Source of the DNA: Candidatus Aenigmatarchaeota archaeon
Lineage (GTDB): Archaea > Aenigmatarchaeota > Aenigmatarchaeia > GW2011-AR5
Direction of reading: 5' to 3'
DNA length: 64,000 nt
NCBI GenBank assembly: GCA_016184005.1
Contig: JACPDL010000003.1
Coordinates: forward strand, 171,632-235,631
Below, one piece after another: positions 6,890-61,561 of this stretch. A program made the position numbers and the translations under genes. Within the stretch, counting starts at the first letter, position 1. Every line of letters starts with the position of its first letter. The notes beneath the pieces are model-generated. The model searched no databases, was not told where the DNA came from, and was given only the letters and a program-made list of their open reading frames with translations.

Positions 6890-6953
6890 AACAAATCCCT
6901 TTTCTTTAAGAAAGAAAAGGTCTTTGTATGTCCCAAAAGAAACTTACAAAAAC
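6890..6953. repeat. Family-A start-codon-abutting palindromic element, copy upstream of L19e
   Basis: Reverse complement reads ttttgtaagtttcttttgggacatacaaagaccttttctttcttaaagaaaagggatttgtt immediately followed by the ATG of L19e. Confidence 0.7.
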
Positions 6954-12342: not shown

Positions 12343-12975
12343 TTACTCGCCTGCCTTTGCGGCTTCTGGAGCAGCGTCAATGTTCTTTTCTTCAATCTTC
12401 CTCATCGTGATGAGCTCGGGCTGATTTATCATTATTTTCACCGTTATGCCGATGCTTCCGAGCTTGGGCGATGCCACAGCAAAGCCGGTCATAACATCTT
12501 TCAGTGCCGGGTCTCCGGCTTTCTTCAAGTAACCGGCACTGAATCTCTGCGTCCTGCTTCTCTGTCCGGAAACCTTGCCTGAAAATACTATCTCGCAACC
12601 TATGGCACCCGATTCCATTATTCTCTGCAGATACTGGTTTCCCAGCCGCTTGTAGTTCACTCCCGATTCTATTGCGGCTGTAATTGCCTGCGCGACAACT
12701 GCCGGATTCATGTCCGGATCCATTATTTTCTGGACATCTATTTGCGGGTTTTCTATCTTGAACTTCTGTTTGAGCAATTCTGCGGTTTCCCTTATCTTTT
12801 CCCCGCCCGTGCCGATAACCAGTCCCGGCGTTGTCGTATGAATAACAATACGCGTTACTATCGGAGTGTGCTGTATTTCTATCTCGCCGCACTTTGCCTG
12901 AGTAAACTGACTCCTGATAAACTCCTGCAGATTGACCAGCTCCTTCGCTTTCTGTATGAAAATTCTTTCCTTCAT
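12343..12975 (-). CDS. rps3: 30S ribosomal protein S3 (uS3)
   Basis: KH domain plus uS3 C-terminal domain. Confidence 0.9.
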   Translation of the reverse strand: MKERIFIQKAKELVNLQEFIRSQFTQAKCGEIEIQHTPIVTRIVIHTTTPGLVIGTGGEKIRETAELLKQKFKIENPQIDVQKIMDPDMNPAVVAQAITAAIESGVNYKRLGNQYLQRIMESGAIGCEIVFSGKVSGQRSRTQRFSAGYLKKAGDPALKDVMTGFAVASPKLGSIGITVKIMINQPELITMRKIEEKNIDAAPEAAKAGE

Positions 12976-13034
12976 AACAAATCCCTTTTCTTGAAAGAAA
13001 AGGTCTTTGTAAACCCCAAAAGAACTTACAAAAC
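12976..13034. repeat. Family-A start-codon-abutting palindromic element, copy in the L22-S3 intergenic region
   Basis: Reverse complement ...ttttgtaagttcttttggggtttacaaagaccttttctttcaagaaaagggatttgtt-ATG(S3). Confidence 0.7.
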
Positions 13035-17367: not shown

Positions 17368-17748
17368 CTATCTGACCGCTTTTCTGCTGCCTTTATTGCC
17401 CTTTCTTCTTGGTATCTTGGGAGAAGCTTCGCTTCTCCGAGATTCCAAAAAGCTGCGCTTTTTGAGAATGTTGAATTCTGTCATCATCATGCCTCTTATA
17501 AAATTTGGATCAAAAGAAATTATATCAGCAAACTTATCTGCTATTTTATCTGCACTCAAATTCATCAGCCAATACTGCGTTGCCAAATATTCTGGCAAAG
17601 ATTGTGCAAGCCCATCATCCCTGACTTGCATTTCTAATGCGGCATATGTGCCTATATATCTCGATCTCTTAATTCCAGGATCATCTAGCGTTCTTGTTCC
17701 AACTATTATTTCCTCGAAATCTATGGCGCCTGTTGTCTGGTATGTCAT
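17368..17748 (-). CDS. Hypothetical 126-aa protein between L3 and L4; its 3' end overlaps a MITE-like repeat
   Basis: Intact ORF in operon orientation; C-terminal codons run into repeat copy M3 (17416-17468). Confidence 0.35.
   Translation of the reverse strand: MTYQTTGAIDFEEIIVGTRTLDDPGIKRSRYIGTYAALEMQVRDDGLAQSLPEYLATQYWLMNLSADKIADKFADIISFDPNFIRGMMMTEFNILKKRSFLESRRSEASPKIPRRKGNKGSRKAVR
17416..17468. repeat. Family-M MITE-like element, truncated copy (hairpins 1 and 4 only)
   Basis: cttgggagaagcttcgcttctccgagat tccaaaaagctgcgctttttgagaa matches the ends of the copies at 36970-37076 and 20469-20575. Confidence 0.7.
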
Positions 17749-20081: not shown

Positions 20082-22141
20082 TAAACATCTTCGTAAACAA
20101 TCTCGATGCCGACCTTGCCGGAGACTGTCGTGTCAGAAGCTGCCGAGAATTCTATCGTGTTCAGCTGCCTGAAGTATTCCTTTGGTATGGCTTCGCCTAT
20201 GATCTTGTTGTCGTTCAATATTACAGCAGCGCCGCGGGGCAGCACAGTGATCCTCGCGGACTTGAAGCCCTGCAGCTCGTTGTCCAGCGTGAAATCAAAC
20301 CTGTCCTGCGTGGCTTTCTCCACGTCAGCGATAACAGAAGCCCTGATCTCGTAAACAGCCGGCGTCCAGAATATGAATCCAGACGATGTGGCCCTGATCT
20401 TGAGCAGGCCCTCCGCATCTGCATTAACCGGTATTATTAATCTGCCTTTTTCATACCTGGCGGCAAAATTCTCAAAAAGCGCAGCTTTTTGGAATTCTCG
20501 AAATCCAAAGGATTTCGGAATCTCGGAGAGACGGAGTTTCTCCGAAGATCTCGGAGAAGCTTCGCTTCTCCCAAGATTAGCAGTCTTCAATGCTGCATTG
20601 TCAGGCACAGGCTCAGGTTTTCCCCTGAATAATTCCTCATCATCAAGCGTAACGACAAGCTCCCCGAGCCTGTTTGTTTCCTTGACTTCTATAACAACCT
20701 CCTTGACAAAGGATTTCGGCACGTCAAGCCTTATCTCATTGCTGCCGAACAAGAGGCCGTTGAACAGCCTTTTAGCCGACACGAATGAATCCTCTTCCTT
20801 GAAATTGGCGATGTCTATGCCGAACTCCAGAAGCCTTTTCTTCTCGCCCGGTGTCTTTCCGTCTTCATCAACAATCCCAAGGGCACCAACCGTTATTGTG
20901 ACACTGGAAGGCGCCAGATCAATCAGCCCTTCAGCATCACGCGCATTGAGGGTGGCTATGTATCTGCCATCCCTCTGGTAAATATGGGTAAGTGTCTGTA
21001 TTGATTCTACTGTCGGCAGGGATTGTGCCTGGCCGTCACCAAAATCCAATACGCACGAGACAAGCCGCCTCTGCAGGTCCCTGCAGCGTGCGGCAAATGT
21101 TACCTGCAGCGGAGCAGGGCCGCTTGTCGGCGTTGCCTGCAAGTCCGTAGTAGGCGCATTGCCTATATCCGATTCAACCACGATTGTGACTTCAGCAGGC
21201 GTAGCGTCTATTCTGCCCCTCTCATCAGAGGCCCGGACCTTTGCTATCCTTCGCAGGTCGCTAACCTCCGGGTTGACGTAAACATGGCTGATCTGCTGCG
21301 GCGTTTCTATATTGAGCAGGTTTTGCTGCTCCCCGTCGCCGAATTCTATGACGCATGAGCTGATATCGAAGTTAGCAGAAAAACACAGGACATCAAAGTT
21401 TACCAGTAAAGGCGATTTTCCTCTCACCGGGAAGGCGCTGATGAAAGTCTCAGGCTTGTCGCTAAAGCCGGGCAATACCTGTATCATGATTCCGGCGGGC
21501 GTCTGGTCCCCTGCGCCGGAGTCGTCTCTCGCGCTAAGTATAGCCGGGCGGAAAATGATTCTTTCCCTTTCGTTCTCGTAAGTATGAAGAACAGTCTGCG
21601 GCGTTTCAGCGTTTGTAAGCGCCTGCTTAGCCCCGTCGCCGAAATCCAGTTCGCATGAAGAAATCAACCCATCGTCGTCCTTGCATGTCGCTATGAATGT
21701 GACTTCCAATGGCGATTCGCCTGTCGTCGGAAATGCCTGCAAAAATGTCTGGGGCTCAATGTTTGGCCTCACAACGCTGATTGTTATCAAAGAGGGCGTC
21801 TGGTCGCTGTTGCCGAAGCTGTCTGTTGCTGTAAGCGTGACAACAAAGTTGCCTGTCGTGGAATAGGTGTGGGTTATTGTCTGAGGCAGCTGTATCCTCT
21901 GGAGAATCTGGTTCGTGCCGTCGCCGAAGCTGATTATGCACGAAGCGATCTCAATGTCGTCCTTGCACAATGCCGTAAATATGACTGTCATCGGCGCGTT
22001 GCCAGAAATCTGCGATGCCGTCAATGTAGTTTCAGGAGACGTCGCATCCTGTATTGAAATAAGAACAATCTGGGCGCTAACAGTGCTGACTAGAATCATG
22101 AGCGCCATCAACGCCGATAAAAGTCCTGTTACTCTTGCCAA
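20081..22141 (-). CDS. Secreted surface protein with four PKD-like repeats and a C-terminal domain containing an in-frame MITE-like insertion
   Basis: N-terminal signal peptide MARVTGLLSALMALMILVSTVSAQ; four ~95-aa repeats each with an FGDG motif; segment LGRSEASPRSSEKLRLSEIPKSFGFREFQKAALFE is encoded by repeat copy M2. Confidence 0.6.
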   Translation of the reverse strand: MARVTGLLSALMALMILVSTVSAQIVLISIQDATSPETTLTASQISGNAPMTVIFTALCKDDIEIASCIISFGDGTNQILQRIQLPQTITHTYSTTGNFVVTLTATDSFGNSDQTPSLITISVVRPNIEPQTFLQAFPTTGESPLEVTFIATCKDDDGLISSCELDFGDGAKQALTNAETPQTVLHTYENERERIIFRPAILSARDDSGAGDQTPAGIMIQVLPGFSDKPETFISAFPVRGKSPLLVNFDVLCFSANFDISSCVIEFGDGEQQNLLNIETPQQISHVYVNPEVSDLRRIAKVRASDERGRIDATPAEVTIVVESDIGNAPTTDLQATPTSGPAPLQVTFAARCRDLQRRLVSCVLDFGDGQAQSLPTVESIQTLTHIYQRDGRYIATLNARDAEGLIDLAPSSVTITVGALGIVDEDGKTPGEKKRLLEFGIDIANFKEEDSFVSAKRLFNGLLFGSNEIRLDVPKSFVKEVVIEVKETNRLGELVVTLDDEELFRGKPEPVPDNAALKTANLGRSEASPRSSEKLRLSEIPKSFGFREFQKAALFENFAARYEKGRLIIPVNADAEGLLKIRATSSGFIFWTPAVYEIRASVIADVEKATQDRFDFTLDNELQGFKSARITVLPRGAAVILNDNKIIGEAIPKEYFRQLNTIEFSAASDTTVSGKVGIEIVYEDV
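20469..20575. repeat. Family-M MITE-like element (four consecutive hairpins), full copy lying in frame inside a CDS
   Basis: ~95% identical to the reverse complement of 36970-37076. Confidence 0.75.
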
Positions 22142-26971: not shown

Positions 26972-28174
26972 TCAGGCGAGAGACCGGCACTTTCCAGGAC
27001 CTCGGTAAGGTATTTCATGGGCCGCATAAAATTCTTCTGATGTCTTGTAGCCAAGCGACTTGATTCTGGAATATATGCAAGGACGGGTTATACCGAGTTT
27101 TACTGCAGCGGCAGTCATATTTCCATCAGCCGCTTTAAGCGCCTCAGCCACTGCTTTCTCCGGTCGTTTGGTTCGGGATCTTTCTATCCCATAGGCTCTG
27201 CGAAAGTCTTCAGGAGACGGATAACCTAATTTCGTGATATTATATCTCAGTTGCCTGTCGCTTAACCGGAGGTCGCGTGCGGCGGCAGTCATGTTTCCTC
27301 TGCTTGCTCTAAGCGCCTCAGCTATAAGCTGTCCGCTGAATGCCCGCATCGCGGATGCGTAATCGCCGGGTTGCGCGTACACGGCTCCCGGCTGTTCTTC
27401 GCTTTTCTGTGATTTGCCCGTTTTTCCGCGCAGTATGCTGGGACAGATTTCATCGCCTTCGGACATCACGAAACCGTACAGCAGGATATTGCCGAGTTCC
27501 CTCACGTTTCCCGGAAAATCGTATTCCAGCAGCGCAGACACCGCTTCCGGCGTTAATGTTTTTCTGGCGCTGTTTTGCCTGCACAGCCGGTCCATATAAA
27601 ACCGCGCAATCGGTTCTATATCTTCCCTGCGCTCGCGGAGGGGCGGCATGCAGATCTCCAGGGCGCACAGCCTCTGGTAAAGTTCCTGCCTGAATCCGCC
27701 TTTGTCAGAAAGGTCCCTGCTGGTGGCGGATATTATCCTCACATCGGTATCAGACTGCTTGGTGCCGCCGACAGGTATGAATTCGCCGGTTTCGAGCGCC
27801 CTGAGAAATTTCGGCTGCACATCCATCGGAAGCTCGCCTATTTCATCAAGAAAGAGGGTGCCGCCGTCTGCGCTTTTTAGAACACCCGTGTTGCGGCGAT
27901 ACGCCCCCGTGAACGAGCCCTTTTCATGCCCGAAAAGAATTGACTCTGCAAGTTCGCGCGGTATGCTTGCGCAATCCAGCGGATAGAATAAGGCGGAACT
28001 GCGCCCTGAATTGCGGTGAAGCTGGCGTGCCACAAGCTCTTTTCCGGTCCCTGTTTCGCCTGTTATGAGGACAGGATAATCATAAGCCGCAAACTTCTTT
28101 ATTTTCTGCCGCACGCCTTCTATTTGTACGGACGTTCCTACTATTTCGCATTGTGGATTAAGGCCGCGCATCAT
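26972..28174 (-). CDS. Sigma-54-interaction-domain AAA+ transcriptional activator (bacterial enhancer-binding-protein type), no receiver domain, two tandem Fis-type HTH at the C-terminus
   Basis: Walker A GETGTGKE, ESILFGHEKGSFTGA (GAFTGA-type loop), Walker B GGTLFLDEIGEL, duplicated HTH (NMTAAARDLRLSDRQLRYNITKLGY / NMTAAAVKLGITRPCIYSRIKSLGY). Confidence 0.8.
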   Translation of the reverse strand: MMRGLNPQCEIVGTSVQIEGVRQKIKKFAAYDYPVLITGETGTGKELVARQLHRNSGRSSALFYPLDCASIPRELAESILFGHEKGSFTGAYRRNTGVLKSADGGTLFLDEIGELPMDVQPKFLRALETGEFIPVGGTKQSDTDVRIISATSRDLSDKGGFRQELYQRLCALEICMPPLRERREDIEPIARFYMDRLCRQNSARKTLTPEAVSALLEYDFPGNVRELGNILLYGFVMSEGDEICPSILRGKTGKSQKSEEQPGAVYAQPGDYASAMRAFSGQLIAEALRASRGNMTAAARDLRLSDRQLRYNITKLGYPSPEDFRRAYGIERSRTKRPEKAVAEALKAADGNMTAAAVKLGITRPCIYSRIKSLGYKTSEEFYAAHEIPYRGPGKCRSLA

Positions 28175-29090: not shown

Positions 29091-29154
29091 AAACAGAGGA
29101 CTTCGCAAATATTAAGGGATTGTGAGAATGGAAGATCGCTTGCATGGCAAGAGG

Positions 29155-29241
29155 AGAAACTACGTATCTCCCTCTACCCTCTCCCTTCTGAAGGAAACGA
29201 GGTTAGAAGGAGAGAAACCATGGGTTTCTTCTCCTCTTATG
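29155..29241. repeat. Family-D structured repeat (gaggagaaactacgtatctccctctaccctctccctt...) flanked by a 7-bp direct repeat caagagg
   Basis: Shares ~38 bp with the inverted copy at 32999-33036; internal hairpins; 7-bp flank duplication at 29148-29154 and 29242-29248. Confidence 0.5.
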
Positions 29242-29276: not shown

Positions 29277-29327
29277 CATCCAATCCCTTTCTTAAAAAGA
29301 AAGGTCTTGGAGAACCCCAAAGAATAA
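29277..29327. repeat. Family-C repeat atccaatccctttcttaaaaagaaaggtcttggagaaccccaaagaataa, copy 1
   Basis: Near-identical copy at 36851-36900. Confidence 0.7.
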
Positions 29328-29397
29328 TAGTCTGCAAAGCAGCCTATTAGGAGAGAAGGATGATATCTGAAAAGAGCGTCGGTTCTCGACTTATCAT

Positions 29398-29508
29398 GGG
29401 CTCGTGGTCTAGTGGAATGACGCGACGTTCGCAAAGAGGAGAAATATGTATCTCTCTCAAAAATATTGAAATACGTCGAGGCCGGGGGTTCGAATCCCCC
29501 CGAGTCCA
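29398..29508 (+). tRNA. tRNA-Ala (anticodon CGC) with a ~39-nt intron at/near position 37/38
   Basis: Acceptor GGGCTCG/CGAGTCC with G3:U70 Ala identity pair; anticodon stem CGACG/CGTCG; loop TTCGCAA; T-arm GGGGGTTCGAATCCCCC; discriminator A; CCA not encoded. Confidence 0.8.
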
Positions 29509-29931: not shown

Positions 29932-30011
29932 AGGTCTTGGGTTAATATTCAACACTATAAAGAGACTCTCAATTTTTGAACGCTTAAATTTATACTGGAG
30001 ACTACACATTC

Positions 30012-30596
30012 ATGTTCAATCTAACGCTAGATACATCTTGTTTTTCTCTAAGAAAAGAGGAAAATTCTTTGTTGAACGAGCTTTTAGAATTACAAGCAGA
30101 TTCAAAAATATTGTTGTACTACGCACCACGAACTTTACAAGAACTTATGATGTCCATTGCAAAGAAAAAAGAATTACCGAAAGTAATTGAAATGAAGATA
30201 AAATATAGGTTTCGAGATGTGTTCAGAGATTATTTAGAAAATATGGACGAGATTGACCCAGAACTCGAATGGGAAGACGAGTTCCACGAAATAGGACTAT
30301 TTGTTACAAGAGTATGTCTCGAAATTACTGACAAAAACGTAATAGAAAAGTTAGAAGTGTCAGAAGAAAACTTACGTAGATATTTGGATAGCCAGAAGAA
30401 CCATAACAGTCATACAGATATTGATATATTCACATTTCATGTTATGAACAAAGGTAATATATTCCTGACTAAAGATGTACCGTTGTTTGTAAGTAATCAA
30501 AAAACAAGAGAAACACTGGAAAATAAATATAACACAAAAATTAGACTCCTAAATAAAGATTTTATTGAAGAATTAAAAAATATGATAGAGGCTTGA
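30012..30596 (+). CDS. Hypothetical protein, possibly a PIN-like nuclease
   Basis: N-terminal LTLDTSCF (PIN motif-I-like Asp), downstream acidic residues, C-terminal IFLTKDVPLF (PIN motif-IV-like T-x-D). Weak assignment. Confidence 0.35.
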   Translation: MFNLTLDTSCFSLRKEENSLLNELLELQADSKILLYYAPRTLQELMMSIAKKKELPKVIEMKIKYRFRDVFRDYLENMDEIDPELEWEDEFHEIGLFVTRVCLEITDKNVIEKLEVSEENLRRYLDSQKNHNSHTDIDIFTFHVMNKGNIFLTKDVPLFVSNQKTRETLENKYNTKIRLLNKDFIEELKNMIEA

Positions 30597-31777
30597 TGCT
30601 TATGGAGTCTATGAATTATAAAAGTCCAATTAAGGTCAGAAATATAGAAATAGTAAATCAGTTAAAAGAGTTCTATTCTCTCTCTTCAAATATTGATTTA
30701 CCAAAAGACATAGAAACTCAAGTAATTGACATTGCCGTCAAGAAGATTGATCAAGATAAAAAAGTTGTAGAAAAAAGATTATTGGGATTAAATAAAGAAG
30801 ATGAATTTGTACTGACTTCTCTTCTGTTAGGAAATGCCCTTCAAGTTACAAGGCTTTCACAACAAAAGATTACACAAGATTTAGATTATCAAATACCAGA
30901 TTTTTTAGTATGCACTAGGGTTCCAAAAATTGTAGATAAAGATGGGGATAAAATAAACAGGTTTTTTGTAGAAGTCAAAAAATTATCAGAGAATGAAAGT
31001 GATTTTAAAATAACGCAGGATTATTTTAATAAACTTAAGAAATATTGCAAAACTTACTCTTTGCCACTTTACTTTGCAATTAAGTTAGAGCTTGGAGGTG
31101 TTGGTTTTTCTCAATGGGCTTTAATTTTCTCTGATACCGTAGAAAACTCTGGACAAATTAAAAAGCTAAAAATAAGAAAAGATAGCAAAGAAGAAGATTG
31201 TTATTTATTTACATTGAAAGACTTATTATCGAAAGACTTCTCAGGTTTATGGATGGACAATCATCTATTATTTTTGTCGGAGGGTTCGGTCTATAGAAAG
31301 GTTTATGATATTAATAAAGAATCCCCAATTCATATTACATCTGAAACAGGCGAAGATTTGGGAGGACTTGTAGAAGTAGAATTAAAAAACGGTAGTATTT
31401 CTGAAAAAGTAACGTTCGAAAAAGATAAACATGATGTCAGAGATATAATTTTCTATAATATTGCAATGAGAATAGCCAGAGGTAAAGAAACAATACAGAC
31501 TACAAATACGACAACTGAGAAAATTATAGAAGCTGATAAAAACTATTCAATCCCGCTTTATCATTTAGTTTTAGAAATTTACCTTCACTTACGTTCAAGA
31601 TTTGGAGAAAGCTGGAAGGAACCCAGATCAGATATAAGTTTTTACTTATCCCACTTAACAGACTTTGATTATAAAATATCTTATTTTATAAGAGATATAA
31701 TAATTAATTTACACAAGAATAATATAATTAAATTAATTAGAATGGTACCAGATTTTTTAATGGAAAATGATGACTAA
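30593..31777 (+). CDS. Hypothetical protein with a PD-(D/E)xK nuclease-like core
   Basis: IPDFLVCTRVPKIVDKDGDKINRFFVEVKK = PD ... E-V-K spacing typical of the restriction-endonuclease-like fold; start overlaps the upstream stop (ATGA). Confidence 0.45.
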   Translation: MMLMESMNYKSPIKVRNIEIVNQLKEFYSLSSNIDLPKDIETQVIDIAVKKIDQDKKVVEKRLLGLNKEDEFVLTSLLLGNALQVTRLSQQKITQDLDYQIPDFLVCTRVPKIVDKDGDKINRFFVEVKKLSENESDFKITQDYFNKLKKYCKTYSLPLYFAIKLELGGVGFSQWALIFSDTVENSGQIKKLKIRKDSKEEDCYLFTLKDLLSKDFSGLWMDNHLLFLSEGSVYRKVYDINKESPIHITSETGEDLGGLVEVELKNGSISEKVTFEKDKHDVRDIIFYNIAMRIARGKETIQTTNTTTEKIIEADKNYSIPLYHLVLEIYLHLRSRFGESWKEPRSDISFYLSHLTDFDYKISYFIRDIIINLHKNNIIKLIRMVPDFLMENDD

Positions 31778-31989
31778 TTTAATTTCTCCTTAACTTTCCC
31801 ATAAACCTTGAATGGCTTGTCAGACCTAGCATGTTTTCTCAAATAATGCAAAGAACTCTTGTTTATGCCAATTTTCTTTGCTTCTGACTGGGATAAGCTT
31901 AATATTTTTTGCCTCAACTTAAAGTCATCCTCTCTTTTCAATACTAGTGAAGGCTCTGAAAAGTCGATGCTAGGCTTCTTACCTATCAA
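31774..31989 (-). CDS. Small hypothetical ORF (71 aa) at the distal edge of the island
   Basis: Intact ORF; no family recognised. Confidence 0.2.
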   Translation of the reverse strand: MIGKKPSIDFSEPSLVLKREDDFKLRQKILSLSQSEAKKIGINKSSLHYLRKHARSDKPFKVYGKVKEKLN

Positions 31990-32135
31990 GTAATGAGCCA
32001 GTTCTTGAGCTTTAAATAAAGTGATTTTCAGTTTTCAAATCCTTATGTCCTCGAGTCCATTGAACCTCAGGTATAAGCCACGATGCTATCCAAATCTTTA
32101 ATAGTATTCTTCACTATTAATTATAGGCGAATTGT

Positions 32136-32998: not shown

Positions 32999-33036
32999 AA
33001 GGGAGAGGGTAGAAGGAGATACGCAGTTTCTCCTCT
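32999..33036. repeat. Family-D repeat, inverted partial copy
   Basis: Reverse complement gaggagaaactgcgtatctccttctaccctctccctt matches 29150-29187. Confidence 0.5.
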
Positions 33037-33072
33037 TTTAAGCTTGTCTGCGACTCATAAGGCTGTGATTCC

Positions 33073-36287: not shown

Positions 36288-36824
36288 TTATTCCTGTTCT
36301 TTCAGTCTTTTTATGATTAAATTTACTATCATTCCGGGCTTTTTCTTCGCGGTGTCTACAACAATGTCAGCTTCGTTTTTCTGGTCAAAATAGTCGAAAC
36401 CGTATATGCGAAGCCAATTGCTCCTTTCCAATCTTTCTTTTTTAACCAGCTTTTTTGCAGCTACTGTAGTTGGAATGTTATCTCTTTTTGCATAGCGTTG
36501 TGCCCTGACATTTCTAGGTGCTTTGAGCCATACAGACAAGTCATCAAATCCTTTGAGCATTCTTACAGCTAGCTTGCCATCAATTACAATATTTCCTTTT
36601 TTTGCATAAGTTTTTGCCAGTTCATCAGAATTTATGTGGAATTTTTTCAGGCCTTTTATTTTCCACATGGCTATGCTCTTGTCGGTTTCTTTTGCTTTGG
36701 CACCGGCATGGCTTTTGTTGTAGTCGCCAACGGAAAAATGCTTCAATCTCAGCTTCTTGGCAAGCAGCTTCGCTGTGGTTGAGGAGCCGCAGCCGGGCTG
36801 CCCGGAAATAACTATTACTGCCAT
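36288..36824 (-). CDS. cmk: Cytidylate kinase (archaeal type)
   Basis: P-loop VIVISGQPGCGSST, ~178 aa, archaeal CMP-kinase-like. Confidence 0.65.
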   Translation of the reverse strand: MAVIVISGQPGCGSSTTAKLLAKKLRLKHFSVGDYNKSHAGAKAKETDKSIAMWKIKGLKKFHINSDELAKTYAKKGNIVIDGKLAVRMLKGFDDLSVWLKAPRNVRAQRYAKRDNIPTTVAAKKLVKKERLERSNWLRIYGFDYFDQKNEADIVVDTAKKKPGMIVNLIIKRLKEQE

Positions 36825-36850
36825 CTGCTAATCTTTGTTTCTCAGCTTAA

Positions 36851-36900
36851 AATCCAATCCCTTTCTTAAAAGAAAGGTCTTGGAGAACCCCAAAGAATAA
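36851..36900. repeat. Family-C repeat, copy 2
   Basis: aatccaatccctttcttaaaagaaaggtcttggagaaccccaaagaataa. Confidence 0.7.
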
Positions 36901-36969
36901 ATATGGCTGCTTTGTGTCTTGCTATCGGAACTACAAACCAAAGGCTTTCTGCTTGGAGAACCCCAAAGT

Positions 36970-37076
36970 CTTGGGAGAAGCGAAGCTTCTCCGAGATCTT
37001 CAGAGAAACCTCGTTTCTCTGAGATTCCGAAATCCTATGGATTTCGAGAATTCCAAAAAGCTGCGCTTTTTGAGAA
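36970..37076. repeat. Family-M MITE-like element, full copy: four consecutive perfect hairpins
   Basis: gagaagc-gaa-gcttctc; cagagaaac-ctc-gtttctctg; cgaaatcc-tat-ggatttcg; caaaaagc-tgc-gctttttg. Flanked by the 19-bp direct repeat aataaatatggctgctttg (36896-36914 and 37077-37095). Confidence 0.75.
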
Positions 37077-37083
37077 AATAAAT

Positions 37084-38256
37084 ATGGCTGCTTTGCAGCC
37101 TATTAAATCTTCGGTTAGAACGATAGTTATGCTTGAAAAATACAAGGAAATGCTGGAGGACAGGACGGCGATGGGCGGGCTCGCGACATTCGTGCCGAAC
37201 AAGAAGCTTCCAGTATATAACTGGCTGTATTTTAAGGAGGGCTTCTCGAAAGAACTGGTTAATTTTCTGGCAGAACAATTCAGGCTGCAGCCCGGCATGA
37301 CTGTTCTGGATCCTTTTTGCGGCTCGGGCACGACACTGGTTGCGTGCAGAGAGCTCGGCGTCGACAGCATAGGCTTTGACGTCCTGCCGCTGTCTGTTTT
37401 TGCCGCGCACGTGAAGACAAGAGGCTACGATACTGCAAAACTGAAAGAAGCGTCCGCACAGCTGTTTTCCCAGAGGTTCATGAAAATAAAAGAAGAATTT
37501 CCGCCTATAATGAAAAAAGCATTCTCAAAATACGCCCTTGAAGACATATCTTTCTTTCGCAGAAACATCGCGCAGATAGAAGACGGCACCATGAGGAATT
37601 TCTTTTTGCTGGCCCTGATAAGCGCTGCCATAAGGGTCAGCTACGCCTGGAAAGACGGTGCGGTGATAAAAATAAGGAAATCCCACAGGCCGCCTTTACG
37701 ATTCATGCTGAAAAGAACGATACAAAGAATGGTAAAAGACGCGGGTAAAATGAAAGGCCGGGCACAATGCACTGTTCAGCAGCGCGATGCAAGGACAATG
37801 AAGCTTGATGATGAAACCATAGATGCAATCATAACCTCCCCGCCTTACCTCAACCAGATAGATTACACAAAGGTCTACGAGATCGAGAACCTTTTCATCA
37901 GGGGCTTATATGAAAAACCGCCAATGAGGTCTTACATAGGGCTTGAAAGCGACACAGAGTTCCTGCCTGAACTGGATCTGCCAAAAGCAGCCAACGCCTA
38001 TTTCCATGATATACATGAAGTCCTGGAAGAAATGCACCGTGTGTGCAAACCGGGAGCACCGGTCGCTGTTGTCGTCGGCAACGCCTATTTTCCAGGCAGG
38101 ATAGTAGACAGCGACCTGATTATATGCCATCTGGCCGATTCAGCAGGATTTAAGATTGACAGAATATCTGTATTGAACGCGCGCTATGCACTGGAAGACC
38201 GCACAACAAAGAAAGGCGTGCTCCGGGAAAGCATGATAATAATGCACAAATCATAA
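37084..38256 (+). CDS. DNA methyltransferase (N6-adenine/N4-cytosine type, SPPY motif), apparently solitary
   Basis: Motif I LDPFCGSGTT and motif IV ITSPPY. Track ORF begins at 36919 by reading through the repeat; start placed at the ATG inside the duplicated 19-mer. Confidence 0.65.
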   Translation: MAALQPIKSSVRTIVMLEKYKEMLEDRTAMGGLATFVPNKKLPVYNWLYFKEGFSKELVNFLAEQFRLQPGMTVLDPFCGSGTTLVACRELGVDSIGFDVLPLSVFAAHVKTRGYDTAKLKEASAQLFSQRFMKIKEEFPPIMKKAFSKYALEDISFFRRNIAQIEDGTMRNFFLLALISAAIRVSYAWKDGAVIKIRKSHRPPLRFMLKRTIQRMVKDAGKMKGRAQCTVQQRDARTMKLDDETIDAIITSPPYLNQIDYTKVYEIENLFIRGLYEKPPMRSYIGLESDTEFLPELDLPKAANAYFHDIHEVLEEMHRVCKPGAPVAVVVGNAYFPGRIVDSDLIICHLADSAGFKIDRISVLNARYALEDRTTKKGVLRESMIIMHKS

Positions 38257-38381: not shown

Positions 38382-38445
38382 GCAAGAGAAGCCTTGCTTC
38401 TCTTCGCATACAAAGACCTTTCTTTGCTAAAGAAAGGGATTTGTT
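38382..38445. repeat. Family-A start-codon-abutting palindromic element
   Basis: gcaagagaagccttgcttctcttcgcatacaaagacctttctttgctaaagaaagggatttgtt-ATG. Confidence 0.7.
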
Positions 38446-39273
38446 ATGAATAGAATAGTTTTTGTCGGGACGGGCGGCGGACGCCATGCTGTTTCTTCGC
38501 AGGTGCGGAAAACAGGCGGAATATTTGTAGAGCTTGACGGCCTGAAATTCATCATAGACCCGGGTCCCGGATCTCTGGTTTTTTCAAGATTCCTGGGATT
38601 AGAGCCTGAAAAATGGGACGGCATGCTCCTTTCACATTATCACATCGACCAATCAAGCGACGCAAACGCGCTGATAGACGGAATGAAGGACCCCGCACCC
38701 GTAGGTGAAGAGGCTGCAAAAGAAATATTCCTGATTGCAGAAGAACACTGCGTCAACATGAAAAAAGACCATGACGAATATCCAAGAATAAGCAAATTCC
38801 ATCAAAGGCTGGTCAAGAACCTGCATGCAGCGAAGCCTGGGCAGGATATTTCCCTGGGAAAAATAAAGGTAAAAACAACCGGAACGGAACACGGCGTGCC
38901 GAACGTGGGCTTTGTGATTTCAGGATCGCTAAGAATAGGCTATCCTTCTGACGGGATATATTATTCAGGGCAGGAAAAAAAATTTGATAACTGCGACATA
39001 CTAATCTTGAATGTCCCTATCCCTAAAGGCGGCGAATCGAAGCACAAGGTTTACATGAGCGTGGACGACGCAATAAAGCTTGTGAAAAGCATAAACAGCA
39101 AGCCCAGAATTGTAATTCTGACTCATTTCACCCCGTGGATGCTGCGCTCTAACCTGTTCAAGCAGGCAAAAATAATGCAGGATGCAACCGGCGTCAAAAC
39201 GATCTTTGCGCAAGACTTCATGGAAATGGACATGAAAAACTTCCAGACAAAAGTATTGCAATTGAAACTCTAA
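38446..39273 (+). CDS. Metallo-beta-lactamase-fold hydrolase
   Basis: LLSHYHIDQSSD (HxHxD-type motif) plus downstream His/Asp ligands. Confidence 0.65.
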   Translation: MNRIVFVGTGGGRHAVSSQVRKTGGIFVELDGLKFIIDPGPGSLVFSRFLGLEPEKWDGMLLSHYHIDQSSDANALIDGMKDPAPVGEEAAKEIFLIAEEHCVNMKKDHDEYPRISKFHQRLVKNLHAAKPGQDISLGKIKVKTTGTEHGVPNVGFVISGSLRIGYPSDGIYYSGQEKKFDNCDILILNVPIPKGGESKHKVYMSVDDAIKLVKSINSKPRIVILTHFTPWMLRSNLFKQAKIMQDATGVKTIFAQDFMEMDMKNFQTKVLQLKL

Positions 39274-42556: not shown

Positions 42557-42599
42557 TAATTTAGTTTTATTATATACAAAATAGTTGTTGTGAGGCTCT

Positions 42600-60279: not shown

Positions 60280-60351
60280 GAAAAAGAAAGGTCTTTGTCA
60301 GTTTCTTTGGGGTTTACAAAGACCTTTCTTTTGTAAAGAAAGGGATTTGTT
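60280..60351. repeat. Family-A start-codon-abutting palindromic element
   Basis: aaagaaaggtctttgt-cagtttctttggggttt-acaaagacctttctttt-gtaaagaaagggatttgtt-ATG(RFC). Confidence 0.7.
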
Positions 60352-61302
60352 ATGGAAGAGATATGGACAGAAAAGTACAGGCCCAGATACCTCAAGGATC
60401 TTGCTGGCCAGCAGCATGTTGTGAAGCGGCTGGAGTCCTTTGTGAAGAACAAATCACTGCCTCACTGCCTCTTTGCCGGGCCCGCAGGCGTTGGAAAAAC
60501 CACTTGTGCATTATGCATTGCGCAGGAGTTCTTTGGCAATTCATGGAAGAGCAATTTTCTCGAGCTTAATGCATCAGATGAGCGCGGAATAGACACAATC
60601 AGAGTCAAGGTGAAGGATTTCGCAAGAACAATGCCAATAGGCGGCTCCTTCAAGATAATTTACCTGGACGAAGCAGATTCCCTGACAAAGGATGCCCAGC
60701 ATGCGCTGCGCAGGACCATGGAAAGTTATGCGGCCACGTGCAGGTTCATACTCGCCTGCAATTACAGCAGCAAAATAATACCGCCGATCCAAAGCAGGAC
60801 GGTTATTTTTCGCTTCCATCCTCTTGGCAAAGAGGACATGGAAAACTGCCTGAAAAAAATAGCAAAAGAAGAAAAGCTGAAAGCAGACGATGGCTCTTAC
60901 AAAGCTATACTGCATGTAGCTGAAGGCGACATGAGGAAGGCAATTAATATACTGCAGACATCCGCAGCACTGGACGGAAAGATAACGGAGAAGGAAGTCT
61001 TTGCAGCAACAAGCCATGCAGATCCGGAAAGGGTAAAGAGGATGCTTTCCCTTGCAATTGAAGGCAAATTCAAGGAAGCCAGAAAAGAGCTTACGTCACT
61101 GCTCTTCGAGGAAAGCCTTGCGGGCGAGGACGTGATCAAGGAGATATATTCACAAACAGTCAAGCTCGATATCGATGACAAGAAAAAACTCCAGCTTATT
61201 GAAAAGATCGGCGAATATGAATTTCGCCTGACAGAAGGCAGCAATGCCCAGATCCAGCTTGAGGCGCTGCTCGCGCAGATGGCGCTAGCGGGGAAGAACT
61301 AG
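60352..61302 (+). CDS. rfcS: Replication factor C small subunit
   Basis: Walker A GPAGVGKTT, DEAD box DEADSLT, SRC motif, clamp-loader C-terminal domain; no intein. Confidence 0.9.
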   Translation: MEEIWTEKYRPRYLKDLAGQQHVVKRLESFVKNKSLPHCLFAGPAGVGKTTCALCIAQEFFGNSWKSNFLELNASDERGIDTIRVKVKDFARTMPIGGSFKIIYLDEADSLTKDAQHALRRTMESYAATCRFILACNYSSKIIPPIQSRTVIFRFHPLGKEDMENCLKKIAKEEKLKADDGSYKAILHVAEGDMRKAINILQTSAALDGKITEKEVFAATSHADPERVKRMLSLAIEGKFKEARKELTSLLFEESLAGEDVIKEIYSQTVKLDIDDKKKLQLIEKIGEYEFRLTEGSNAQIQLEALLAQMALAGKN

Positions 61303-61376: not shown

Positions 61377-61561
61377 GCCGAGGTAGTTCAGCGGTAGAAC
61401 GCCACGCTCATAAAGGCTTTTCTTTTAAAAAAGAAAACCCTGGAAAAGAAACAGAAATAAAAATTGGAAAGAAAACTTTCAAGAATTATGAGCTTTGAGA
61501 TGCTTTGCATCAGTGATAATGAGAAACGTGGAGGTCGTGAGTTCGAACCTCATCCTCGGCA
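61377..61561 (+). tRNA. tRNA-Met (anticodon CAT, elongator-type) with a ~113-nt intron (61414-61526)
   Basis: Acceptor GCCGAGG/CCTCGGC; D-arm GTTC-AGCGGTA-GAAC; anticodon stem CCACG/CGTGG; loop CTCATAA; T-arm GTGAG-TTCGAAC-CTCAT; discriminator A. Confidence 0.7.

Follow-up and report, generated by a model that had tools for sequence, protein, structure and literature searches.

The DNA analysed here (the window) is a stretch of 64,000 nucleotides from a Candidatus Aenigmatarchaeota archaeon, positions 171,632 to 235,631 of contig JACPDL010000003.1 (assembly GCA_016184005.1). Its tRNA genes, probably with introns, and the matches of its proteins likewise assign it to this group of DPANN archaea. 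The spacer between two divergent genes of the window, coding for a cytidylate-kinase-like protein, whose ATG forms the left edge of the spacer, and for a DNA methyltransferase, contains a 108-bp element made of four hairpins (the hairpin element). This element lies within the second of two copies of a 36-nt block, designated R, and R in turn belongs to an older insert, designated E. The spacer was compared between fixed anchor sequences in the window and in nine related Aenigmatarchaeota contigs, among them L021. The features of the locus are as follows (coordinates are those of the window; ORF, open reading frame).

36288..36824, minus strand: divergent neighbour, gene for a cytidylate-kinase-like protein of 178 aa (Pfam PF13189), syntenic in all orthologous loci.
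36853..36878, plus strand: hairpin A (TCCAATCCCTTTCTT-AAAA-GAAAGGT..), the 5' module of insert E, from an inverted-repeat scan.
36879..36914, plus strand: first copy of R, intact, 36 nt, holding the first copy of a 19-mer and an out-of-frame ATG at 36903.
36903..37022, plus strand: 39-codon ORF from ATG 36903, out of the methyltransferase frame, with its TGA stop inside the hairpin element.
36915..36951, plus strand: 37-nt spacer between the R copies, unlike the spacer of L021 and unlike the 37 nt before the first R.
36952..36968, plus strand: 5' part of the second copy of R, 17 nt, by alignment with L021.
36969..37076, plus strand: hairpin element, 108 bp, absent from L021 and all other alleles.
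37077..37095, plus strand: 3' part of the second copy of R (second 19-mer), carrying ATG 37084, which was brought by insert E.
37096..37104, plus strand: CAGCCTATT, the 3' tail of insert E; the end of R and this tail together make up hairpin B (GGCTGC-TTT-GCAGCC).
37101..37108, plus strand: TATTAAAT, the probable methyltransferase TATA box, -28 to -21 from ATG 37129.
37129..38256, plus strand: gene for the DNA methyltransferase (375 aa when read from the conserved start), with motif I (LDPFCGSGTT) and motif IV (TSPPY).

The methyltransferase matched PF01555 with 61.7 bits against a cut-off (Pfam gathering score) of 26.7 and the PADLOC model MTase_II at 2.2e-60, and the FCGxG and TSPPY motifs were invariant in an alignment of 19 homologues. 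Judged by the Pfam domain and both motifs, the protein is a type II-like N4/N6 DNA methyltransferase. This bears out what an earlier interpretation of the window from its letters and ORFs (the sequence-only reading) had proposed on the basis of an SPPY motif. A restriction endonuclease gene adjoining the methyltransferase gene was found neither in the window with Pfam and PADLOC nor in the orthologous loci compared. The synteny is conserved: the gene is flanked by those for GMP synthase and the kinase and, across from these, by those for an MBL-fold protein and a class I tRNA synthetase; the neighbours also include an F420 ligase-like protein. Because no restriction gene is near and the housekeeping synteny is conserved, the earlier description of the enzyme as an orphan methyltransferase holds.

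The 375-aa reading from ATG 37129 was 100% identical to the NCBI protein MBI2232751.1 of the same genome, which has the same start. The longest ORF (TTG 36919..38256) runs through the hairpin element and, as noticed in the sequence-only reading, adds 55 codons ahead of ATG 37084. More than 4,000 homologues were found; the 120 listed were mostly 355-400 aa long, and none of these 120 covered the 55-residue extension. Among the 19 aligned homologues, 18 begin at the MLEKY position (ATG 37129 in the window) or no more than a few residues from it, and the closest strain is the only one with a start called earlier, by 15 codons. On this alignment, we conclude that the true start would be ATG 37129, as in all relatives, and not ATG 37084, which had been taken for the likely start. 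The ATG of the first 19-mer, previously thought to lie in frame upstream, is located 181 nt from ATG 37084 and thus in a different frame, and the methyltransferase frame is interrupted by a TAA stop (36898-36900) within the same 19-mer. A real N-terminal domain was rejected, since no listed homologue covers the extension and the homologue starts lie downstream. These homologues, together with the empty sites in sister genomes described below, indicate that the extension is inserted repeat DNA, as had been supposed. We conclude that it is probably an artefact of ORF calling through the open frame of the hairpin element. The 445-aa and 390-aa models of the methyltransferase would likewise be artefacts, or start from an ATG carried in by the insert, gene callers having been misled.

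Four allele states were found at the kinase-methyltransferase spacer. In the empty state (state 0; L034, L023, and L024), the anchors are separated by 80-81 nt, corresponding to a 51-nt intergenic spacer that reads CAGCTTAAAAAATCTTCGG; these are the empty sites whose existence in related genomes the sequence-only reading had proposed to check. In state 1 (L026, L027, L032, L033, and L035), the distance is 151 nt, and insert E, of ~70 nt, lies within the A-run and consists of hairpin A (CCCTTTCTT-AAA-GAAAGG), one block R, and the tail CAGCCTATT. In state 2 (L021, with a methyltransferase protein 97% identical to that of the window), the distance is 223 nt, and R (35 nt) occurs twice with 37 nt between the copies. 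State 3 was seen in the window only; here the distance is 334 nt, R (36 nt) occurs twice around a different 37 nt, and the second R is interrupted between AAAG and AATAAAT by the hairpin element, whose target was not duplicated. The hairpin A module is accordingly absent from the three empty alleles and present in L021 and the five state 1 alleles, in all of which latter five R is single. As judged from the aligned spacers, this order of alleles shows three nested inserts, namely insert E, the duplication of R, and the hairpin element. The 5' end of the methyltransferase gene is clearly an insertion hotspot.

The 19-mer AATAAATATGGCTGCTTTG does occur exactly twice in the window (36896-36914 and 37077-37095; chance expectation 0), but it had been interpreted as a 19-bp target-site duplication around a single insertion of ~160 bp. 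The 17-mer CTTGGAGAACCCCAAAG is also present twice (36879-36895 and 36952-36968), which brings the duplicated block to 36 nt, and L021 carries the block duplication without the hairpin element. Therefore, the 19-mer pair is half of an older 36-nt repeat and not a footprint of the element. Insert E itself has a second copy in the window.

29279..29344, plus strand: further copy of insert E, in which R is single and diverged and the loop of hairpin B is flipped, just upstream of the tRNA gene at 29398.

As a separate observation, L024 (L024:2915-3000; GCA_964373755, CAYJVV010000007) carries a different insertion of ~90 nt with a hairpin of its own (GTTCACATTCC...GGAATGTGAC). This insertion sits right after ATGCTTGAAA, just past the methyltransferase start codon, and the gene call is moved to a downstream TTG.

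The hairpin element consists of four tandem stem-loops with stems of 8-10 bp and loops of 3 nt, arranged in units of 28, 28, 26, and 26 nt. The folding energy of its single-stranded DNA was -31.4 kcal/mol compared with -12.7 for shuffled sequences (z = -7.76). An inverted-repeat scan of positions 36800-37150 found nothing beyond the four internal hairpins: the ends TCTTGGGAG... and ...TTTTTGAGAA do not pair, and terminal inverted repeats are absent. Two forms dominate the family, one of 54 nt (units 1+4) and one of 108 nt (units 1+2+3+4). The window has three copies, and the sister metagenome-assembled genome (MAG) JAGVVX01, with 93-97% identity to the window over their shared parts, has more than 20; a pattern scan located the element on 18 contigs of this MAG and also in two MAGs that are more distant. 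Full copies have 90-98% identity, their stems show compensatory double changes, and their loops are often reverse-complemented between copies. At three sites that could be compared with empty alleles, the junction repeats were 0, 2 (AT), and 3 (TTG) nt, without any target duplication of fixed length. A conserved target beside one end, as in IS200/IS605-like elements, was considered and rejected, since the 4-nt flanks differ at every site read.

No Rfam family matched the element at gathering or permissive thresholds. Three of its six reading frames are open. The encoded 36-aa peptide gave only 4 matches, all lineage-specific, among 1.84 billion representative proteins, a library that undercounts carriers because these cluster with insert-free relatives; a query with the concatenated peptides of the three frames yielded just 9 short ORFs and failed to retrieve known carriers, and this number is therefore likewise an undercount. 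Because the peptide is so rare, the hairpin family appears to be young and narrow. These results indicate that the hairpin element is a lineage-restricted, multi-copy, non-autonomous selfish repeat.

Several further observations concern this family. Flipped loops (GAA/TTC, GGA/TCC) were seen in the copies of L003, L006, L009, L010, L015-L017, and L029 and in the window at 17420, and the loop of hairpin B is flipped in the same manner between the two copies of insert E (TTT/AAA). The loop flips suggest inversion or template switching at palindromes. In L003 (7684-7940), there is an intergenic 72-nt tandem duplication; a two-hairpin element from a sister family (GCAGAAAGC-AAA-GCTTTCTGAGA / CCAGAAACC-TAA-TGGTTTCTGAG) interrupts an additional, more diverged copy of the unit that lies upstream. 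Public databases also hold several short 'proteins' (P0124-P0132, 85-161 aa) that are mostly translations of the element in three frames and are probably spurious calls.

The other two copies in the window, the first of which is 94% identical to the copy at the methyltransferase gene and lies on the opposite strand, confirm that the repeat family noticed in the sequence-only reading is real. Both are located within genes.

20469..20576, minus strand: second full copy, an in-frame insertion of 36 codons in the gene for a 686-aa PKD-domain surface protein.
17415..17468, plus strand: short copy (units 1+4, 54 nt), an antisense in-frame insertion of 18 codons near the 3' end of an ORF that separates the genes for ribosomal proteins L3 and L4 (the L3-L4 ORF).

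The orthologue of the PKD-domain protein (P0121/L028) lacks exactly those 36 residues, with 95% identity overall and both flanks conserved, and the frame continues for 128 conserved residues past the insert. Similarly, L028:3672-3998 encodes the L3-L4 ORF (17368..17748, minus strand) minus 18 residues. On these alignments of filled and empty alleles, both insertions prove to be precise and in frame. The element peptide also splits the PF08713 domain match of an AlkD-like protein (P0123), interrupts the HHH_8 domain of a PolX-like protein, and occurs in an unannotated protein of 291 aa. A cobalamin adenosyltransferase gene has a copy immediately upstream, a situation resembling that of the methyltransferase gene; most of the remaining copies are intergenic or at gene ends. 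Since the two forms, of 54 and 108 nt, are multiples of three and half of the six frames are open, the element can sit in genes without breaking them. The region of L020 was considered as a fourth junction in comparison with the window and was rejected, as it is rearranged and offers no clean pair of filled and empty sites. The L3-L4 ORF itself, of 108/126 aa, has no Pfam match and is ~98% conserved between the two strains; the genes for ribosomal proteins L3 and L4 are normally adjacent.

In the ancestral, empty spacer of 51 nt, the A-run TTAAAAAA is located ~26 nt from both divergent start codons. Many genes of the window have a YTTTTAAG- or TTATAAG-like box ~23-31 nt before their ATG, a distance that fits archaeal TATA boxes with leaderless mRNAs. 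In every E-bearing allele, TATTAAAT is found at -28 to -21 from the methyltransferase start, the position occupied by TTAAAAAA in the empty alleles, and the kinase side retains TTTTAAG after insert E. The loop of hairpin A, CTTAAAAG, also resembles the TATA-like box of the window genome. The position of TTAAAAAA suggests that it served in the empty allele as a single bidirectional TATA box shared by two leaderless genes.

As the allele series shows, the present spacer arose in three steps. In the first, insert E (hairpin A, R, and hairpin B) landed in the A-run, bringing the extra in-frame ATG 37084 and leaving the A/T box TATTAAAT at the normal distance from ATG 37129. In the second, R (35/36 nt) was duplicated around an unrelated 37-nt sequence, differently in two strains. 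In the third, which is confined to the window lineage, the four-hairpin element entered the second R copy without duplicating its target. Because TATTAAAT keeps its position in the E-bearing alleles, all of the inserted DNA would lie upstream of a preserved core promoter, and the hairpin element would be ~25 nt upstream of that of the methyltransferase. Its effect on this gene is most likely little; at most, it may take part in upstream regulation or separate or disable a promoter or ATG borne by E. As for the spread of the element, the lack of terminal inverted repeats and target duplications, the junction microhomology of 0-3 nt, and the frequent flipping of loops point to a route that depends on hairpins or single strands, or is mediated by repair, and not to classical cut-and-paste transposition.

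We consider it likely that this account of nested insertions and selfish hairpin DNA is correct as a whole. The following points weigh against it. The steps that concern the promoter, the leaderless start, and the unaffected protein have been deduced from the sequence. Neither a transposase nor any other mobilising enzyme was identified, although no genome-wide search for one was made. The window allele is supported by one assembly, and the junction in the PKD-domain gene fits fixed element ends only with a 2-nt register shift or one substitution. Simple tandem duplication does not account for the R-spacer-R step. Finally, the AlphaFold structure of P0123, predicted from a single sequence, was too poor (mean predicted local distance difference test score, pLDDT, 53.5) to judge whether the fold tolerates the insert.

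The R-spacer-R step is also where a rival explanation has most to offer. The repeats and spacer are 36 and 37 nt in the window and 35 and 37 nt in L021, with boundaries equal to within 1 nt. The two spacers are unrelated in either orientation (negative global alignment scores), and the R copies are identical within an allele but different between alleles (CCCC vs CCT). Tandem duplication followed by divergence was rejected, since the R copies are 100% identical and the spacer is unlike the 37 nt before the first R. All of this, together with the existence of single-repeat alleles, would be accounted for if a foreign fragment of ~37 bp had been inserted with duplication of a ~36-bp target, independently in two strains. 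Such an event might be a Cas1-Cas2-like staggered integration at a site outside any CRISPR array; alternatively, E might be a mobile mini-array with spacer turnover. Identical repeats of 24-40 nt with unique spacers of similar length, one mark of a CRISPR array, are indeed what R-spacer-R presents, and off-target integration by Cas1-Cas2 is documented: a passage of PMC6698737 that cites Nivala 2018 describes it as able to seed new loci.

On the other hand, R never occurs more than twice in the 9 alleles, and hence never with more than one spacer, whereas a CRISPR array has at least three repeats. R bears no resemblance to curated CRISPR repeat families and is without the typical 3' handle. PADLOC detected no Cas protein among the 43 ORFs of the window (64 kb, on a contig at least 549 kb long). 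Related DNA totalling 279 kb contained no CRISPR array, no other occurrence of the same geometry, and, by local blast, no further copy of the 37-nt window spacer. A search for the origin of the spacer gave no exact 24-25-mers in IMG/VR and no blastn match in GenBank phages, and thus no protospacer in these viral and phage collections. CRISPR-Cas systems are uncommon in DPANN archaea. We regard an origin of R-spacer-R by integration of this type, or from a mobile mini-array, as doubtful. It is slightly more doubtful that insert E represents a very small mobile unit ('leader plus single repeat') at which a Cas1-Cas2-like integrase, encoded by the organism, its host, or a virus, repeatedly inserted ~37-bp fragments and duplicated the 36-bp repeat. 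If so, a DPANN archaeon would offer a natural example of CRISPR-type integration at a site that is not CRISPR, or would show a mini-array being born there; a structure made by an integrase would bear on the origin of CRISPR arrays. Two other candidates were set aside: the 72-nt spacing in L003 is a plain tandem duplication and not the R-spacer-R geometry, and a C/D-box small RNA in the L021 spacer was dropped, as it rested on a partial C/D' match by eye that is absent from the window spacer.

A functional role of the hairpin array would be a different matter. It might be a cis element recruited to regulate the methyltransferase (as a transcription insulator or terminator, an array bound by proteins, or a small RNA) and not selfish DNA, which would be in keeping with very stable hairpins that show compensatory changes and with several copies at gene ends or just before starts (L011 and the methyltransferase). 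We consider this improbable, since the family occurs in both orientations within coding regions of unrelated genes, the same sites are empty in sister strains at 91-97% identity, Rfam offers no match, and the methyltransferase locus is without the element in 8/9 alleles. It is very improbable that the structure is an artefact of metagenome assembly, such as a repeat-induced loop or a strain chimera; the window allele occurs in one assembly only and the Logan contig L022 breaks inside R, but two independent assemblies show the same geometry with different spacers, the junctions are clean with flanks collinear over kilobases, and the other insertions of the element are in frame in otherwise intact genes. 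The explanation of the sequence-only reading, in which a single MITE-like insertion (MITE, miniature inverted-repeat transposable element) of ~160 bp with a 19-bp target duplication created an in-frame ATG and with it a new N-terminus or choice of start, agrees with the exact 19-mer copies flanking the element and with the long ORF reading through it, but is hardly tenable and already refuted by the L021, L026, and L034 alleles, because the ATGs are out of frame with a stop in the gene frame, the block is duplicated without the element in L021 and single in five alleles, the duplicated block is 36 nt with its second copy split by the element, and no target duplication accompanies the family's other insertions.

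Some other features of the window were recorded. A pair of 39-nt inverted repeats (29149-29187 and 32999-33037, 95% complementary) brackets 3.8 kb next to tRNA genes. The bracketed DNA includes an AT-rich island at 30000-32000 (GC 0.30 compared with ~0.45 elsewhere) and two ORFs (30012-30596 and 30593-31777) without a Pfam match, and it may be an integrated foreign element. The tRNA genes at 29398-29508 (111 nt) and 61377-61561 (185 nt) were both found by Rfam and by ARAGORN not at all; since their lengths far exceed 76 nt, they probably contain introns. Right before the copy of insert E at 29279, the sequence (..GGGTTCGAGTCCCGATCGGTCCATCA) resembles the 3' end of another tRNA. In addition, a near-identical palindrome is located directly before the ATG of four unrelated genes and may be a shared promoter or operator module.

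6891-6930, 12968-13026, 38409-38448, and 60315-60354: palindrome ACAAAGACCTTTCTTT-NNN-AAAGAAAGGGATTTGTT, related to hairpin A of insert E.

A gene at 26972-28174 (minus strand) encodes an AAA+ protein with a sigma-54-interaction domain and HTH_8, matched by RtcR/PspF-like PADLOC models at 2e-94; such a protein is unusual in an archaeal genome. Finally, the JGI contig L026 (768-4135) has ~3.3 kb that the window lacks at about 42560-42590.

The four allele states at a putative shared bidirectional promoter constitute a natural experiment on the insertion tolerance of archaeal promoters. In the family as a whole, the Rickettsia palindromic elements (RPEs) have a clean counterpart among archaea, with filled and empty alleles for several genes. 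This suggests that in-frame selfish hairpin DNA also exists outside obligate intracellular bacteria, in a reduced-genome symbiotic archaeal lineage, where it would add peptides of 18 or 36 residues to repair, surface, and ribosomal-operon proteins. A limited literature search found no report of an RPE-like in-frame repeat family in archaea.

In comparison with known systems, the label 'MITE-like' given in the sequence-only reading fits loosely. The hairpin element shares with classical MITEs its small size, its non-coding origin, its non-autonomous nature, its multiple copies, and its strain-variable presence, but it has neither terminal inverted repeats nor a target duplication, and MITE finders based on terminal inverted repeats would probably miss it. 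DPANN genomes are reported to be dense in MITEs, with most archaeal MITEs intergenic (PMC11602168). R-spacer-R resembles off-target Cas1-Cas2 integration and mini-CRISPR arrays in its duplicated target of ~36 nt and its unrelated, strain-specific insert of ~37 nt; it differs from these in having two repeats only, no cas genes seen in the window, no protospacers, and a repeat that is not CRISPR-like. With REP/BIME sequences and REPINs (REP, repetitive extragenic palindromic), the hairpin element has in common clustered short imperfect palindromes, a high copy number, and no target-site duplication, although REP sequences are extragenic by definition and tied to RAYTs, whereas copies of the hairpin element also lie inside intact genes. 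Like the BOX elements of Streptococcus pneumoniae, it has a modular build, units 1 and 4 being fixed at the ends and units 2 and 3 varying in number between them; BOX elements differ from it in sequence, host, and module size and are found mainly between genes. RPEs are known to insert in frame in unrelated housekeeping genes (PMC10969869). Like these repeats of ~100-150 bp, the hairpin element is a multi-copy hairpin repeat that occurs both in intergenic DNA and in frame within unrelated genes, and adds a conserved peptide without disrupting the host ORF. Unlike RPEs, each of which is one long palindrome, it consists of four short tandem stem-loops in modular sizes of 54 and 108 nt, has a DPANN archaeon as its host, and shows no sequence relation to them. 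The hairpin element is thus closest in behaviour to the Rickettsia palindromic elements and in architecture to REP/BIME or BOX-type clusters.

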